Origin: a virus
Lineage: Duplodnaviria > Heunggongvirae > Uroviricota > Caudoviricetes
IMG/VR virus record: IMGVR_UViG_3300018477_000004
Coordinates: 1-5,159 of that record
Length of the DNA stretch: 5,159 nucleotides
Strand: one strand, 5' to 3'
Below the pieces are notes generated by a model. That model saw only the letters and a program-made list of their open reading frames with translations. It made no database searches and was not told the origin of the DNA. Below, one piece after another: positions 1 to 5,159 of this stretch. The translations under genes and the position numbers were made by a program. How positions within the stretch are numbered: position 1 is the first letter of the stretch; each line of letters begins with the position of its first letter.

Positions 1-1
1 A

Positions 2-1312
2 AACGGCGGATTGTTGGCTGGTATCGGCGGCGTCAACTCAAACGCTCCGAGCGTAAATGACATCGGCAATACGCTTCAGCTTATCAGGCAGAACAATGAT
101 ATTGAGCGTTCAGGCGCTAACAATGTTGGGCTTACTGCTTTGCAAGGCCTTTCAGGCATTGCAGGGGTGTTTCAGCAGGAAAAGCAGGCTCAGCGGCAGA
201 AAGAATTTCAGCAGGCGTACGCTAATGCTTATGCGTCTGGTGATCGCGGTGCTTTGCGTCAGTTGGCTACTCAATATCCAGACCAGATTGAATCCGTCCG
301 TAAAGGCATGGGGTTCATTGATGAAGACCAGCGTAATTCTATCGGCACCTTAGCGGCTGGCGCACGCCTTGCGTCATCGTCTCCAGAAGCAATGCAATCA
401 TGGCTGCAAAACAACGCCGGTGAGTTAGCTCGTGTTGGCGTTAATCCTCAGGACGTCGCTCAGATGTACCAACAGAACCCGCGGCAGTTCGGCGAATTTG
501 TCGATCACCTGGGGATGAACAGTCTCGGACCCGAAAAATACTTTGACCTACAGGATAAAATGCAGGGTCGCCAGGTTACCATGCGCGGTCAGGATCTGGA
601 TTCGCAAACCGCCGCTCGGAATCAGGCAATCACAATGCGCGGGCAAGATATCCAGGCGAATTTAGGTCAGCAGCGCATTAATCTGGACGCAGAAACAAAC
701 CGCATTAACAACGAAAATAAGCGCCTTGACCGGATGCTATCAGCAGAAACTAACGACCTGAAGCGCCAGGAAATACAGAGCCGCATAGCAGCCAACAACC
801 AGCAGTTGCAGCAGAAGCAGCAAGCGCTAAATGATGGCTACAAAGACGGCATCAACACCCTCACAACCAGCATGTTCACTCTGAACGATATCGTTAGTTC
901 TCCTTCACTTAAGAGCATTACAGGCTTACGTGGAGTAATCCCCAACGTTCCAGGCTCACAGGCTGCAGACACTCAGGCACGACTTGATACCTTTAAATCC
1001 CAAGCATACCTGACAGCGGTTCAGGCCATGCGAGGCATGGGCGCACTTTCTGATGCCGAGGGCAAAAAGCTCGACCAGGCTGTTGGTTCGCTGCAGAACT
1101 CGCAGAGCGAGGAGTCCTTTCGTCGCAACGCTGGCGTCATCCTGAACACGCTCAACCAGAAGCGTAATGAGGCGGTTGGTAAGTACGTTCAGCAAAACGG
1201 TATCAAGCGAGTGGAAGCGCCTCAGGCTTCTATAGATTACCTGAAGCAACACCCCGAGCTGTCAATCGACTTCATTAATCGCTACGGATATCTTCCATCT
1301 TTGGGGCAGTAA
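2..1312 (+). CDS. Internal virion / DNA-ejection protein, P22 gp20-like by position; 5'-partial because the frame is open to the window edge
   Basis: Long ORF in frame 2 with no in-frame stop between position 2 and the TAA at 1310-1312. The track start at 11 is a TTG with no convincing upstream RBS, so the gene most likely begins upstream of the window. The protein is Q/N-rich with a predicted coiled-coil stretch (approx. nt 650-840, '...QQRINLDAETNRINNENKRLDRM...QQLQQKQQALN...'). It sits immediately upstream of, and is translationally coupled to, the SLT-domain ejection protein, as for gp20 before gp16 in P22-like phages. The functional call rests on position and composition, not on recognised sequence identity. 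Confidence 0.8.
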   Translation, partial: NGGLLAGIGGVNSNAPSVNDIGNTLQLIRQNNDIERSGANNVGLTALQGLSGIAGVFQQEKQAQRQKEFQQAYANAYASGDRGALRQLATQYPDQIESVRKGMGFIDEDQRNSIGTLAAGARLASSSPEAMQSWLQNNAGELARVGVNPQDVAQMYQQNPRQFGEFVDHLGMNSLGPEKYFDLQDKMQGRQVTMRGQDLDSQTAARNQAITMRGQDIQANLGQQRINLDAETNRINNENKRLDRMLSAETNDLKRQEIQSRIAANNQQLQQKQQALNDGYKDGINTLTTSMFTLNDIVSSPSLKSITGLRGVIPNVPGSQAADTQARLDTFKSQAYLTAVQAMRGMGALSDAEGKKLDQAVGSLQNSQSEESFRRNAGVILNTLNQKRNEAVGKYVQQNGIKRVEAPQASIDYLKQHPELSIDFINRYGYLPSLGQ

Positions 1313-1640
1313 ATGGCTAATTACCGTGATTTGTTAGAGCAGGCTGGCGCACGTTACGGTGTGCCAGAAGGGTTGATGACTGCACTGGGTGCCAAGGAGT
1401 CTTCTTACAACCCTGCCGCAGTAAGCTCCGCCGGGGCTGTAGGATTGACTCAGGTCATGCCTGGGACATGGCGTGATATGGGTTATACCGATGAGCAAAT
1501 GCAAAACCCCGAATATCAGGCTGACGCTGGCGCGCGCTATCTGGCAAAGATGTACCAGCAGTTTGGTAACTGGCGTGACGCTCTTCAGGCTTATCACGAC
1601 GGTCCCGGCAACGTTATGAAGGCAAAGCGTGGTGAATATA
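1313..1640 (+). other. Lytic transglycosylase (SLT) catalytic domain within the ejection protein
   Basis: The ES, GLTQ and AYHDG motifs occur in the canonical order and spacing for goose-type-lysozyme-like SLT domains. Domain boundaries are approximate. Confidence 0.8.
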
Positions 1641-3706
1641 CGCCAGGACCTGAAGGCCGCGGTTACGTTGATGATCGCTTTGCTCAATGGGCGGGTGACC
1701 CGGTGACAGACTCAACAGTCGAACAGCGCGCCACCTCTGCAAAGGTACATCCTCAGCAAGACCCTAACAACCCGTTTGCACAACTGGAAGCACAGTCATC
1801 CGAACAAGTATCGGCATCAGGCGTGCAGTCAGACCCAAATAATCCATTTGCTCAGATTGAGCAGCAGGCAGCCAGTCAGCAGCCACCTCAACCCGTAAGT
1901 TCTGTCGCACCGAAACCTGTTCAGCAGCAAGGCGGAATAATGTCTGACCTTGGTAATGGACTTGCTGAAACCGGGCGCGGCTTACTACAGGCAGGAATCA
2001 ACGTAGCGAACATACCTGCTGAACTCACTGATGCTGTAACAAGCGCGGCGGCTTGGGCTGGCGGTAAACTCGGCATTGGCGATGGTACATATCAACCAGC
2101 ACCACGAGTAACAACGCAGGGATTAGAGCAGGACTTTGGCCTTCAGCAAGGCGCGCTGACTCCACAAACGACAGAGGGAAGGGTATTTGCTGAAGCATTG
2201 CCTTACCTCACTCCTGCTGGCGTTGAGAGAGCGGCGGTACAGGCACCAACACTTGCTGGTCGAATTGCTCATGGGGCAACTCGACTTCTAGCAGAAAACG
2301 CAGTTGGATCACTTGCTGCAAACAGTGCGAAAGATGATGCGGAAGCACTCGCCACCGATTTAGGCGTTGGTGTGCTGGCTGGCGGTGCTATTAACGCTGC
2401 CGGACGTGGATTAGGTGCTGCTTATCGTGGTGTTCGTGGTTCGATAGCACCAGAAGCGCAACAGGCTATCAGATTTGCAGAACGTGAAGGAGTTCCTCTG
2501 CACACCACAGACCTGTTACAACCCATTTCCCGCGTCGGAAAAATGGCGCAGACGACAGCGGAAAATATCCCCCTGGCTGGCACAAGCGGAATGAGAGCAA
2601 CGCAACAGGAAGCGAGAAGCCAGTTGGTGCAGAGATTTGCTGATAAATTCGGTGAGTATGATCCAGCTGTTGTTATTGACAGCCTTAAAGCGAAAACATC
2701 AGGAATTCGTCGCGCTGCAGGAAATCGACTGGAGCAGGTTCAGAATGCTATGGCGGGAATAAACATTCAGCCTGCAAGAGCAATTCAGCAGATTGATACA
2801 GAAATATCTAACCTGCAGAAGCTTGGTAAGGTTGCTGATAACGAGACTATTTCAAAACTTCAGTCCTATCGTGATGAGCTTGTTCGCAATGCTGGTCCTG
2901 ATGGTCCGGTAAATCTGGATTTGAAGCAATTAAGCGATCTGCGCAGCCAGTTCAGAATGGACGTGAAGGGGGAGCGACCAGTGTTACCAAACCGTTCCGA
3001 TGCTGCCATTCAGCGCGTTTACAAGGCAATGACCGACGATATCAATGGTGCCATTGGTCAGAATCTTGGCAACGATACTCTCCGTAAATATCAGCAGGCC
3101 AATGCCGTCTACGCTGACGAAGCGGCGAAACTAAAGAATACCAGGCTGAAGAATGTTCTCATGAAAGGCGACCTGACGCCGGAAGTTGTCAACAACATGC
3201 TATTCAGCAAGAACAAATCGGAAATTAAGACTCTGTATAACTCAGTTGGTCGTGTTGGCAGGGCGCAAATGCGCAATGGCATCATTGGAAAGGCGATGGA
3301 GAAATCAGGTGGTTCCCCTGACCAGTTCCTTCGGCAGCTTAACATCCTGCAAAACCAGACTGGCATCACATTTAAAGGTCAGGAAGCCGCTTATCTGAAA
3401 GGATTGAAAAACTACCTGCAATCCACGCAGCAGGCTGCAAAAGCGGCAGTAACAACACCAACAGGGCAGCAAACCATCCCGTTCATTATCGGGTATGGGA
3501 CGGCAATGAACCCGGCGACAACTGGCGCAGCGGTAAGCTACGGACTTCTTACTCGCGCCTATGAGAGCGAGCCATTCAGAAATGCAATGCTCCGAATGGC
3601 AAACACCCCACGCGGATCAACAGCGTTTGAGAAAGCCATGCAGCAGGCGCAAAAGGCCATTAACGCCCTGACTCAAGGTGCCAAGTCTGATGCGTTGTCA
3701 GAATAG
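1313..3706 (+). CDS. Large ejection / internal virion protein with N-terminal lytic transglycosylase (SLT) domain; occupies the P22 gp16 position
   Basis: 797-codon ORF from ATG 1313 to TAG 3704-3706, with GGGG 7 nt upstream of the ATG. The N-terminal ~110 residues carry the family-1 lytic transglycosylase motifs: catalytic Glu-Ser in 'GAKESSYNP' (Glu codon 1397-1399), 'GLTQVMPGTW', and 'AYHDGPGNV' (AYNAG-like). These are followed by a low-complexity linker with two DPNNPFAQ(L/I)E repeats, a Gly/Ala-rich segment ('GVGVLAGGAINAAGRGLGAAYRGVRGS', approx. nt 2360-2450) and a long C-terminal region. Confidence 0.93.
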   Translation: MANYRDLLEQAGARYGVPEGLMTALGAKESSYNPAAVSSAGAVGLTQVMPGTWRDMGYTDEQMQNPEYQADAGARYLAKMYQQFGNWRDALQAYHDGPGNVMKAKRGEYTPGPEGRGYVDDRFAQWAGDPVTDSTVEQRATSAKVHPQQDPNNPFAQLEAQSSEQVSASGVQSDPNNPFAQIEQQAASQQPPQPVSSVAPKPVQQQGGIMSDLGNGLAETGRGLLQAGINVANIPAELTDAVTSAAAWAGGKLGIGDGTYQPAPRVTTQGLEQDFGLQQGALTPQTTEGRVFAEALPYLTPAGVERAAVQAPTLAGRIAHGATRLLAENAVGSLAANSAKDDAEALATDLGVGVLAGGAINAAGRGLGAAYRGVRGSIAPEAQQAIRFAEREGVPLHTTDLLQPISRVGKMAQTTAENIPLAGTSGMRATQQEARSQLVQRFADKFGEYDPAVVIDSLKAKTSGIRRAAGNRLEQVQNAMAGINIQPARAIQQIDTEISNLQKLGKVADNETISKLQSYRDELVRNAGPDGPVNLDLKQLSDLRSQFRMDVKGERPVLPNRSDAAIQRVYKAMTDDINGAIGQNLGNDTLRKYQQANAVYADEAAKLKNTRLKNVLMKGDLTPEVVNNMLFSKNKSEIKTLYNSVGRVGRAQMRNGIIGKAMEKSGGSPDQFLRQLNILQNQTGITFKGQEAAYLKGLKNYLQSTQQAAKAAVTTPTGQQTIPFIIGYGTAMNPATTGAAVSYGLLTRAYESEPFRNAMLRMANTPRGSTAFEKAMQQAQKAINALTQGAKSDALSE
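1760..1861 (+). repeat. Two copies of an in-frame 30-nt unit encoding DPNNPFAQ(L/I)E, separated by 42 nt, inside the ejection protein linker
   Basis: Copy 1 is 1760-1789 (gac cct aac aac ccg ttt gca caa ctg gaa) and copy 2 is 1832-1861 (gac cca aat aat cca ttt gct cag att gag). The peptide is conserved but 7 of 10 codons differ at the nucleotide level. Confidence 0.7.
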
Positions 3707-3795
3707 CTTCGCAAACACCAGGAACGTGCAAAAACCAAATATGTAGAACGCAATATTCAGCATATCTCTTTGCATAAATCCTCCGTAACTGATAG

Positions 3796-4056
3796 TTAGC
3801 TGCTGTCTTTTTTATATAGCTCTTTGAGCGTATCAAAGACAATTTTCTTAACCATATCAGATTGTTGTTCTGCCATACGCTCTGCATCGTCAATGTAAAC
3901 TGATGCAGAGCTTTGTTTAGCCAATGATTCTTCAATCGCTGCAATTATCTCTGAGTTCAGAGACCTGTTATTCATCTTCGCACGCTGTTTAATTTTCGCG
4001 TGGAGTTCATGCGGAAGTCTCAAGTGAAACTGCGCCTCGTCGTATTTGCTGTACAT
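3796..4056 (-). CDS. mnt: Mnt-like ribbon-helix-helix (Arc/MetJ family) transcriptional repressor
   Basis: Minus-strand ORF ending at the TAA complement at 3796-3798. The product ('...FHLRLPHELHAKIKQRAKMNNRSLNSEIIAAIEESL...DAERMAEQQSDMVKKIVFDTLKELYKKDSS') closely resembles P22 Mnt as I recall it ('...FNFRMPMEVREKLKFRAEANGRSMNSELLQIV...DAERLADEQSELVKKMVFDTLKDLYKKTT'). The start is placed at the ATG complementary to 4054-4056, which gives a P22-like N-terminal length and has GAGG about 8 nt upstream. The longest ORF would instead start at 4089 (11 codons longer). Confidence 0.85.
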   Translation of the reverse strand: MYSKYDEAQFHLRLPHELHAKIKQRAKMNNRSLNSEIIAAIEESLAKQSSASVYIDDAERMAEQQSDMVKKIVFDTLKELYKKDSS

Positions 4057-4129
4057 CCTTGATGCCTCACCAGTTGGGTGGAATGGCATCGTAACCTACT
4101 GGATAAATACTCAATAGTACCATTTCGGT

Positions 4130-4152
4130 ATGCAATCACATCATGGTTGCAT
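4130..4152. promoter_or_regulatory. Inverted repeat ATGCAA-N11-TTGCAT in the divergent mnt/tailspike intergenic region; candidate operator
   Basis: Perfect 6-bp arms at 4130-4135 and 4147-4152, read directly from the sequence. It lies between the divergently transcribed repressor and tailspike genes and overlaps a possible leftward -10 (complement of 4151-4156 = TATGAT). Any function is inferred. Confidence 0.25.
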
Positions 4153-4166
4153 CATATCATTCGTCT

Positions 4167-4170
4167 GGAG
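4167..4170 (+). promoter_or_regulatory. Shine-Dalgarno (GGAG) for the tailspike gene
   Basis: GGAG sits 7 nt upstream of ATG 4178. Confidence 0.5.
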
Positions 4171-4177
4171 CAATGAA

Positions 4178-4519
4178 ATGTCAGATATCACCGCAAATGT
4201 TGTGGTAAGCATGCCTTCGCAACTCTTCACTATGGCTCGTTCTTTTAAAGCCGTAGCCAATGGCAAAATTTATATCGGTAAAATTGACACTGACCCGGTA
4301 AATCCTGAAAACCAGATTCAGGTTTATGTGGAGAACGAAGACGGTTCTCACGTCCCTGTTTCGCAACCAATCATCATTAACGCTGCTGGTTACCCTGTAT
4401 ATAACGGACAGATTGCCAAATTCGTTACCGTGCAAGGCCATTCTATGGCTGTTTATGATGCGTACGGTGTGCAGCAGTTCTATTTTCCGAATGTGCTTAA
4501 GTATGACCCTGATCAGTTC
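4178..4519 (+). other. Tailspike head-binding (particle-attachment) domain
   Basis: This is the block conserved with P22 gp9 residues ~1-113. Similarity is lost right after 'KYDPDQ(F)'. Confidence 0.8.
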
Positions 4520-5138
4520 AAGATTCTAATAGAAGGAGATGATGGCTATAAATACATACCAAGTCTTAATAAAATAAAATCAGAAATACCAGCAGAATAT
4601 TTTCGAACAATATCTAGCGATGACCAATCAACACTTCAGAATGCTATTGATTATGCAACATCTAAAGGATGGTCAGTATTTCTTGAAACGGATAAAGTAT
4701 ATAGAGTTAGATCTGTCAATGTTTCTTGCATGTTGCGTGGATTCTCTTTCATTGAAAGGATTGAAGGAACATCTGAAACATTGATAAATATGATGAGTGG
4801 AGGTGGATTAAAAGATCTAACTATAAATGGAATGATAACGTCAGGAAATGACACCGTTGGAAATATTGTTTGCCAAGGGTTAACTTCTGTTTTATTTAAG
4901 AATATAAAATCAATTAATGCCGGTGGCCATAACATAACAATTAGAGATACTCCTGAAAATGGAGGAAATACAATTAAAGATTGTTATATTTCAGGAACGC
5001 GTGTTGGATATGGGATTTATCTTAGGAATGTGCGTGGGGAATCAATTAAAAATACAAAGATAACAAAATGTGCTAGTGATGGTCTTGCGTTATCAAATTC
5101 ATCATTTACTGAATCCCCTGTTGAAATTGTTGGTGTAG
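4178..5138 (+). CDS. Tailspike protein, 3'-truncated: P22 gp9-like N-terminal head-binding domain fused to a divergent AT-rich beta-helix receptor-binding module
   Basis: ATG at 4178 with GGAG 7 nt upstream. The frame is open to the window end with no stop, which is probably why the ORF track omits it. The N-terminus '[46 protein letters not shown]...[13 protein letters not shown]...NVLKYDPDQ' is near-identical to the P22 tailspike head-binding domain as I remember it ('[46 protein letters not shown]...'). Downstream of ~4520 the sequence is AT-rich and encodes motifs typical of right-handed parallel beta-helix depolymerases ('[25 protein letters not shown]', repeated 'N-x-I/V-x-x-C...G-x-x-G-I-x-L' rungs). 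The final 21 nt of the window are adapter and are excluded from the CDS. Confidence 0.9.
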
Positions 5139-5159
5139 AGATCGGAAGAGCACACGTCT
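5139..5159. other. Illumina TruSeq adapter sequence (AGATCGGAAGAGCACACGTCT); a sequencing or assembly artefact, not biological sequence
   Basis: Exact 21-nt match to the start of the standard Illumina TruSeq adapter, located at the extreme 3' end of the window. Confidence 0.9.

Follow-up and report, generated by a model that had tools for sequence, protein, structure and literature searches.

The tailspike gene and its surroundings

The window, by which we mean the whole 5,159-nt stretch of DNA that was analysed, derives, to judge by gene content and homology, from the late region of an E. coli phage, a temperate P22-like podovirus (Lederbergvirus). Coliphage IME10 matches bases 1-4518 at 97.4% identity, and Sf101, Sf6 and related phages of E. 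coli and Shigella match block-wise, with synteny of the late genes. The features, with strand in brackets, are as follows:

1..1312 (+): gene-20-type ejection protein (Pfam Inj_translocase, 7.6e-68)
1313..3706 (+): gene-16-type protein for ejection (DNA transfer), its N-terminal domain an SLT lytic transglycosylase (Pfam SLT, 2.8e-25)
3796..4089 (-): Mnt/Arc-type ribbon-helix-helix repressor gene (Pfam Arc, 1e-14; Repressor_Mnt, 3.3e-14)
4178..5138 (+): tailspike gene, 5' half, codons 1-320 of 634; ATG at 4178, reading frame running off at 5138
4178..4519 (+): particle (head/tail-hub) binding domain of the tailspike, codons 1-114, last residues KYDPDQF (Pfam PF09008)
4516..4522 (no strand): putative recombination junction, where the conserved adaptor domain meets the exchanged receptor-binding module; placed by the break in homology and the drop in GC3
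4520..4576 (+): linker or neck, residues 115-133, with the motif GYK-x-(I/V)PS; low pLDDT in the monomer model
4577..5138 (+): predicted N-terminal cap helix, then the first rungs of the right-handed parallel beta-helix; residues 134-320 of the receptor-binding and putative depolymerase module
4826..4828 (+): codon 217, AAT (Asn), a residue of the receptor-binding module
5139..5159 (no strand): adapter read-through, AGATCGGAAGAGCACACGTCT; non-biological, similarity to prophage genes ending at 5139

About 20 nt of the gene-20-type gene are absent at its 5' end, gene 20 of IME10 starting 20 nt before the aligned start of the window, and the gene-16-type gene is syntenic with gp13 of Sf6 and of Sf101. 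The repressor gene is divergent from the tailspike gene and belongs to a reduced immI region, an arrangement also seen in the prophages of E. coli ET665 and of a Logan contig. The tailspike gene follows the ejection genes (7/20/16) and the immI region, as in the late operon of Lederbergvirus. It is cut after codon 320 because the native sequence is ended by AGATCGGAAGAGCACACGTCT, which we take to be the Illumina TruSeq adapter; an earlier reading of this DNA from its letters alone (the sequence-only reading) had correctly ended the gene at 5138, with the adapter unmentioned.

The full gene, of 634 codons, is present in three complete E. coli genomes (STEC384 and STEC379, both isolated from pork, and the frog isolate ET665) and in the Logan contig, at 97.6-99.5% nucleotide identity. 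Over 4178-5138 the identity is 97.6-98.3% with the genes of STEC384, ET665 and the Logan contig, and the part of the window from 4519 to 5138 is 99.2-99.5% identical to the genes in the three strains. In all three prophages the gene is annotated "phage tailspike protein", which is also the RefSeq label of the full-length protein; its cluster at 90% identity has 69 members. The sequence-only reading had described the part beyond the head-binding domain as unrecognised; this is true in that it matches no characterised tailspike, but the protein does have a RefSeq name and a cluster of its own. One residue sets the window copy apart. Position 217 is Asp in all 13 family clusters, where it forms an invariant column of the alignment, and in the three prophage copies, and the Asn encoded in the window may reflect either a sequencing error near the poorly supported end of the contig or a real, possibly disabling change.

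Where homology and base composition change

The N-terminal domain is strongly conserved. The Pfam Head_binding model PF09008 covers residues 1-113 over its full length (E = 2.8e-67), and the PDB sequences matched by this domain are the N-domains of Sf6 gp14 (E = 2.5e-65) and P22 gp9, which bears out the proposal of a conserved P22-type head-binding domain. Over codons 1-114, identity is 100% with the ET665 prophage, 97% with IME10, 95% with Sf101, 92% with Sf6 and 75% with P22 gp9; on these identities the domain is of the P22 type, nearest to the Sf6/IME10 group rather than to P22. The description of this region as matching P22 gp9 almost residue for residue is thus accurate for spikes of the Sf6/IME10 type but overstated for P22 (75%).

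Homology is lost abruptly at the end of this domain, as had been proposed. Megablast matches to 40 phage records all end at 4516-4522, directly after KYDPDQF, and a protein alignment of six spikes diverges immediately past KYDPDQ(F/L). Base composition changes at the same place: GC content is 0.506 over bases 1-4177, 0.439 over 4178-4519 and 0.330 over 4520-5138, and GC3 falls from 0.447 in the head-binding part to 0.175 downstream (4520-5138). The lowest GC content of any upstream 619-nt window is 0.407, and the binomial probability of the low GC of 4520-5138 is 1.7e-8 under the composition of the head-binding part and 6e-19 under that of the upstream sequence. A fall from about half to about one-third GC had been estimated by eye; one-third is right for the module, and about half is right for the ejection genes, but the head-binding part next to the junction stands at 0.44. 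In IME10, Sf6 and Sf101 the receptor-binding module has a GC content of 0.41-0.45 and a GC3 of 0.35-0.40, as against a GC3 of 0.20 for the module of this tailspike, and low GC is therefore peculiar to this module rather than a general trait of spikes.

Predicted fold and candidate active site

Sequence and profile searches with the module found no match among PDB sequences, even at E = 10, and those with the whole fragment (phmmer and profile) gave PDB matches confined to residues 1-131; together with the divergence of the alignments after KYDPDQF, this upholds the statement that the protein bears no resemblance to the P22 endorhamnosidase domain downstream of the junction, and places it outside the P22/Sf6 endorhamnosidase domain family. 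The only Pfam match of the module is the generic Beta_helix model, which gives the fragment in the window 25.6 bits, just short of the 25.9 cut-off, and the full protein 30.4 bits; it matches five of nine family members, at best with E = 9.9e-22. For the module, it was the comparison of folds that proved informative.

An AlphaFold monomer model based on the alignment of 13 family members has high confidence over residues 134-634 (pLDDT mostly 85-97). In it a cap helix leads into many successive short strands, typical of a right-handed parallel beta-helix, and these are followed by a C-terminal beta domain. Foldseek comparison agrees with a right-handed parallel beta-helix. On the strength of this model the module is a member of the pectin-lyase-like right-handed parallel beta-helix superfamily, and the earlier suggestion of a right-handed beta-helix is, as regards the fold, well founded. 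The linker preceding it has the consensus DxGYKxIPS in the family alignment, a motif common to the members regardless of their N-terminal adaptor.

The central rungs of the helix carry a block of polar residues that are invariant in the family (H384-Q385-G386, D410, D413, C414, R415, W429, E433, N435, E438, Q460, H466-K467 and Y472), all of them beyond the end of the window at codon 320. This block is likely to be the active site, and D410, D413, R415, E433, E438, H466 and K467 are the putative acidic and basic candidates for catalysis. The nearest folds to the core of the module are the A-module of the mannuronan C-5-epimerase AlgE4 (2PYG) and the Klebsiella phage K1 capsule lyase (7W1C); these are fold neighbours rather than family members, with no significant sequence or profile similarity to the module. 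The catalytic residues of AlgE4 are Tyr149, Asp152, His154 and Asp178 (PMC7385640). An hhalign comparison of the module family with AlgE4, the sequence of which was confirmed against 2PYG, was weak (9.9% probability, with an ambiguous register of the repeats); its aligned part starts at AlgE4 residue 159, leaving Tyr149, Asp152 and His154 outside, and Asp178 is not paired with any family-invariant residue. A proposed equivalence of the GFDFGDCR motif of the module with YGFDPHE of AlgE4 was accordingly dropped, being unsupported by an alignment of this probability and register.

One could envision a beta-helix adhesin that binds its glycan and leaves it uncleaved, or a module that alters the glycan but does not depolymerise it, as an epimerase like AlgE4 would. 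We consider this very improbable. Dense invariant polar residues in the central rungs are typical of an active site. In the one profile alignment with AlgE4 that was obtained (9.9% probability), the AlgE4 catalytic residues fall outside the aligned part or off the invariant positions of the family. The beta-helix spikes of P22-like phages known to us are depolymerases.

Distribution of the module

The module is rare. When the 206 module residues of the window were compared exhaustively with 1.84 billion representative proteins by HMMER, 12 proteins scored E < 0.001, three of them below 1e-30. A word-indexed search of 5.8 billion proteins returned 13 clusters when the full-length prophage module was used, and no match with the 206 residues of the window alone. 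IMG/VR holds 13 relatives, all at 63% identity or less; among 185,579 species-representative genomes a single one encodes a relative, at 40%; and in 50,697 GenBank phage records and BFVD the sole matching phage isolate is pSb-1. At any detectable DNA similarity, the module is present in just 3 of 5426 complete E. coli genomes.

Rare as it is, the module occurs behind several adaptors, being joined to N-terminal domains of the P22 head-binding (PF09008), TSP1/gp66-type (PF18668) and T7 tail-fibre (PF03906) families and to further N-termini that have no Pfam match; the shared sequence starts at GYK-x-(I/V)PS. One module on several adaptors is, as far as homology can tell, a classic case of exchange of receptor modules at a domain boundary, which substantiates the horizontal swapping proposed for this gene. 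A tailspike of known specificity among the matches, or a uniform base composition, would have spoken against that proposal; the composition breaks sharply, as described above, and the only phage match, gp19 and gp18 of pSb-1, is annotated as hypothetical.

Phage pSb-1 is an N4-like Gamaleyavirus, a virulent phage of another family, and its gp19 and gp18 carry the homologous module and are the best viral structure match. Amino acid identity is 64.3% over 96% of the module, which is split between the two reading frames in the deposited genome. In contrast to the spike studied here, that of pSb-1 is without the P22-type head-binding domain, the reading frame beginning at the module.

A probable O-antigen receptor

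The three complete E. coli genomes that carry the module share an O-antigen cluster. Between galF and gnd, STEC384 and ET665 have the same genes, namely rmlBDAC, an ISAs1 remnant, wzx, a WbsX/GH99-like gene, wzy and two glycosyltransferase genes, and the rmlBDAC-wzx-wbsX-wzy-GT-GT4 cluster is found in all three. Wzx of ET665 is identical in sequence to B2TYE5_SHIB3 of Shigella boydii serotype 18 (SB18) strain CDC 3083-94. DNA of wzx-wbsX-wzy was found in five of the 5426 complete genomes, and the three genomes with the module are all among these five; the hypergeometric probability of such an overlap is 3.8e-10 and, with the pair of pork strains taken as one, 4.1e-7. Within the complete genomes, therefore, the module was confined to lysogens with the SB18 cluster, and outside them it was found in a phage that infects type 18 and in groups of Citrobacter.

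That phage is pSb-1, for which the isolation host was S. boydii ATCC 35966, of type 18, so that the O-antigen type of its host is the type linked to the prophage hosts here. Both type 18 and type 2 of S. boydii are hosts of pSb-1 (PMC6853846). Because pSb-1, which is G7C-like, infects both types and probably carries two spikes, its homologous module could instead serve type 2.

A third line of evidence comes from Citrobacter. The 69-member tailspike cluster includes proteins of Citrobacter portucalensis and Citrobacter sp. S40-1-2, and these members at first seemed to count against a link with the O-antigen. The SB18 Wzy, when searched against 5.8 billion proteins, reversed this: it matched eight clusters only, and the nearest source-named ones outside E. 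coli and Shigella are those of "unclassified Citrobacter" and C. portucalensis, at 60-63% identity. By homology, the Citrobacter taxa that have the tailspike are also those with the nearest homologues of the SB18 Wzy, and their presence in the cluster now supports the link; at only 60-63% identity, the O-antigen of Citrobacter need not be the same as that of SB18.

The co-occurrence in E. coli could in principle be due to shared ancestry or ecology of the hosts, the true receptor being another O-antigen, such as O8, or another glycan. Only three complete genomes are concerned, STEC379 and STEC384 (both from pork in Beijing) probably represent one lineage, and both have an O8 wzm/wzt cluster in addition to the SB18 one; the infection of S. 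boydii type 2 by pSb-1 also leaves room for another receptor. However, ET665 does not have the O8 cluster, and O8, which had been considered as the receptor on account of its cluster in STEC384, was rejected for this reason. The prophage lies beside torT in ET665 and beside argW in the STEC strains, and the backbones differ. With prophage site, backbone and O8 cluster all different, the ET665 case is independent of that of the STEC strains. The overlap has a chance of 4e-7 even with the STEC pair counted once, and the host of pSb-1 and the Wzy homologues of Citrobacter lend independent support. We therefore think it unlikely that ancestry or a different receptor accounts for the pattern.

The module might also be a depolymerase that acts on exopolysaccharide or capsule, such as colanic acid or a K antigen, rather than on an O-antigen. 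The best phage-family profile match, PHROG 8280, is labelled "tail spike protein with colonic acid degradation activity", and the match extends past the head-binding domain into the beta-helix, over residues 1-309 of the protein in the window and 1-397 of the full-length protein. The match ends at about position 404 of the 632 in the profile, however, the label is an annotation only, and colanic acid as a substrate is at odds with the distribution of the module among genomes. An exopolysaccharide or capsular substrate is, in our estimation, improbable.

The three independent lines, that is, the co-occurrence in E. coli, the host of pSb-1 and the Wzy of Citrobacter, point to an O-antigen of the SB18 type as receptor and substrate. 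This O-antigen is the likely receptor of the module on the basis of co-occurrence and of a single phage, which has two hosts. The idea that the module confers a distinct specificity is strengthened by this link to a particular O-antigen cluster. It had also been suggested that low GC is typical of O-antigen loci and of the phage enzymes that co-evolve with them. With a GC content of 0.35 for the module and 0.27-0.29 for wzx and wzy, the suggested co-evolution amounts to a resemblance in composition only.

Discussion

We propose, with a probability of about 0.75, that the gene encodes the mosaic spike of a P22-like E. coli phage, in which a swapped beta-helix module binds and cleaves an O-antigen of the S. 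boydii type 18 type. Under such circumstances, residues 1-114 would dock the spike, presumably a trimer, onto the tail hub of the virion, and a short linker would lead to residues ~134-634, in which a right-handed parallel beta-helix precedes a C-terminal beta-sandwich. The analogy of all characterised P22-like spikes suggests that the module binds the long O-antigen chains of the host LPS and cleaves them, allowing the virion to work its way down to the outer membrane. It would have been gained by recombination at the domain boundary (4516-4522) from a pool of low-GC spike modules common to N4-like, T7-like and other phages, and its most likely substrate would be the O-antigen specified by the S. 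boydii type 18 cluster, which a few E. coli also carry, with a related one in some Citrobacter.

In architecture, position and mode of evolution this spike is like the tailspikes of P22, Sf6 and HK620. As with Sf6 gp14 and P22 gp9, its gene follows the ejection genes and an immI remnant; it has the same particle-binding domain (92% identity with Sf6, 75% with P22); and its order of adaptor domain, linker, right-handed beta-helix and C-terminal domain, here predicted, is theirs as well. It differs from these endorhamnosidases in that similarity ends at residue 114 and in its probable substrate, an O-antigen of the S. boydii type 18 type as compared to the S. flexneri Y and Salmonella O:4/O:9 antigens.

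Cleavage may proceed by hydrolysis or by beta-elimination. Because the nearest folds to the core of the module are those of the AlgE4 epimerase/lyase family and of the Klebsiella K1 capsule lyase, one could suppose that the module is an O-antigen lyase or other non-hydrolytic enzyme, acting by beta-elimination on a uronic-acid-containing SB18-type O-antigen. We regard this as possible but doubtful; the characterised P22-like tailspikes known to us are hydrolases. No chemical structure was found for the O-antigen of S. boydii type 18 in the literature searched, which also gave nothing useful on STEC384 and wbsX, and NCBIfam typing of an epimerase gene beside ugd, from which we had aimed to infer galacturonic acid, gave no decisive type. 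A lyase would, to our knowledge, be the first lyase-type spike among P22-like tailspikes and a ready reagent for typing "untypeable" E. coli and Citrobacter of the SB18 genotype.

The serotypes open to a phage are set by the receptor-binding modules of tailspikes, which also serve as reagents for typing, as depolymerases and as parts for engineering. The gene described here is of a well-known mosaic kind, which will not surprise the specialist and leaves the view of tailspikes and of their mosaic evolution unchanged; what is new is a likely receptor for a rare, AT-rich module. Genome comparisons give this module a concrete candidate substrate, shared with a few E. coli and perhaps Citrobacter, and the same module is seen moving between P22-like, N4-like and T7-like phages. 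Such information is useful for the prediction of phage host range and for serotype reagents, and an assignment to the SB18 type, if true, would add one more entry to the short list of spikes assigned to an O-antigen.

Lysogens often modify their own O-antigen. In ET665 and in the Logan contig, gtr genes adjoin the spike gene, so the exact epitope recognised by the spike may differ from the unmodified SB18 repeat. Exchange appears to have involved the whole spike gene as well as its module: the ET665 prophage matches window positions 1922-5139 without a gap, at 97.6%, whereas the match of the STEC384 prophage begins at 4164, only 14 nt upstream of the start codon, which indicates that the entire gene has also moved between prophage backbones.

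Boundaries of the tailspike gene

The STEC384 prophage of E. coli resembles the window from only 14 nt 5' of the tailspike start codon (window 4164–4177). Besides the recombination boundary at the domain junction, there is thus another one immediately 5' of the gene. At the other end, similarity between the prophage genes and the window stops at 5139, and the contig terminus (5139–5159) is occupied by AGATCGGAAGAGCACACGTCT, the Illumina TruSeq adapter; untrimmed adapter read-through at these positions broke off the assembly within the tailspike gene.

Codon 217 of the window tailspike (4826–4828) is AAT, encoding Asn, where 13 of 13 family clusters of module homologues and three prophage copies have Asp, an invariant residue forming part of a T-I-D-G motif. 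Asn217 is either a sequencing error close to the contig end or a genuine substitution at a conserved site. The window tailspike has a second private difference, A304, all prophage copies having Val.

In Shigella phage pSb-1, the module homologue (L003 2998–4508) is divided over gp19 and gp18 (345 and 154 aa), both annotated "hypothetical", and the combined alignment covers 96% of the module. This arrangement implies that the genome as deposited contains a frameshift or sequencing error, and that gp19/gp18 represent a putative tailspike that has escaped annotation.

O-antigen loci of the lysogens

Two prophages, those of ET665 and the Logan contig, have a gtr-type cassette for O-antigen glucosylation immediately 3' of the tailspike gene and encoded on the other strand; it comprises gtrA/gtrB and a serotype-specific transferase (DUF6056 / GT_STM0557_N); in the STEC384 prophage an integrase takes its place downstream of the gene. 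The STEC384 chromosome holds two adjoining O-polysaccharide loci (L004 14904–43863).

Cassette and O-polysaccharide loci
L002 (ET665) 7569–10116, opposite to tailspike gene: gtr-type cassette
L007 (Logan contig) 3911–6099, opposite to tailspike gene: gtr-type cassette
Within L004 (STEC384) 14904–43863, between galF and gnd: Wzx/Wzy S. boydii 18-type cluster
Within L004 14904–43863, between wzzB and hisI: complete O8-family wzm/wzt mannan cluster

Lysogens that carry the cassette may therefore modify the very O-antigen that their spike recognises. ET665 has the S. boydii 18-type cluster alone, without the O8-family wzm/wzt cluster. In both E. coli backgrounds an ISAs1-family transposase remnant sits between rmlC and wzx of the S. 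boydii 18-type cluster (L006 8117–10034; L004 18666–19562), and the ET665 cluster contains an additional IS1; these IS elements are possibly a trace of the cluster's assembly or transfer.

Ejection protein

A short protein-level tandem duplication (window 1740–1880; DPNNPFAQLEAQSSEQ ... DPNNPFAQIEQQ) falls in a Gln/Pro-rich linker of the SLT-domain ejection protein. The gene-16-type ORF is 797 aa long in the window; its counterparts in Sf6 and ET665 have 665 aa.
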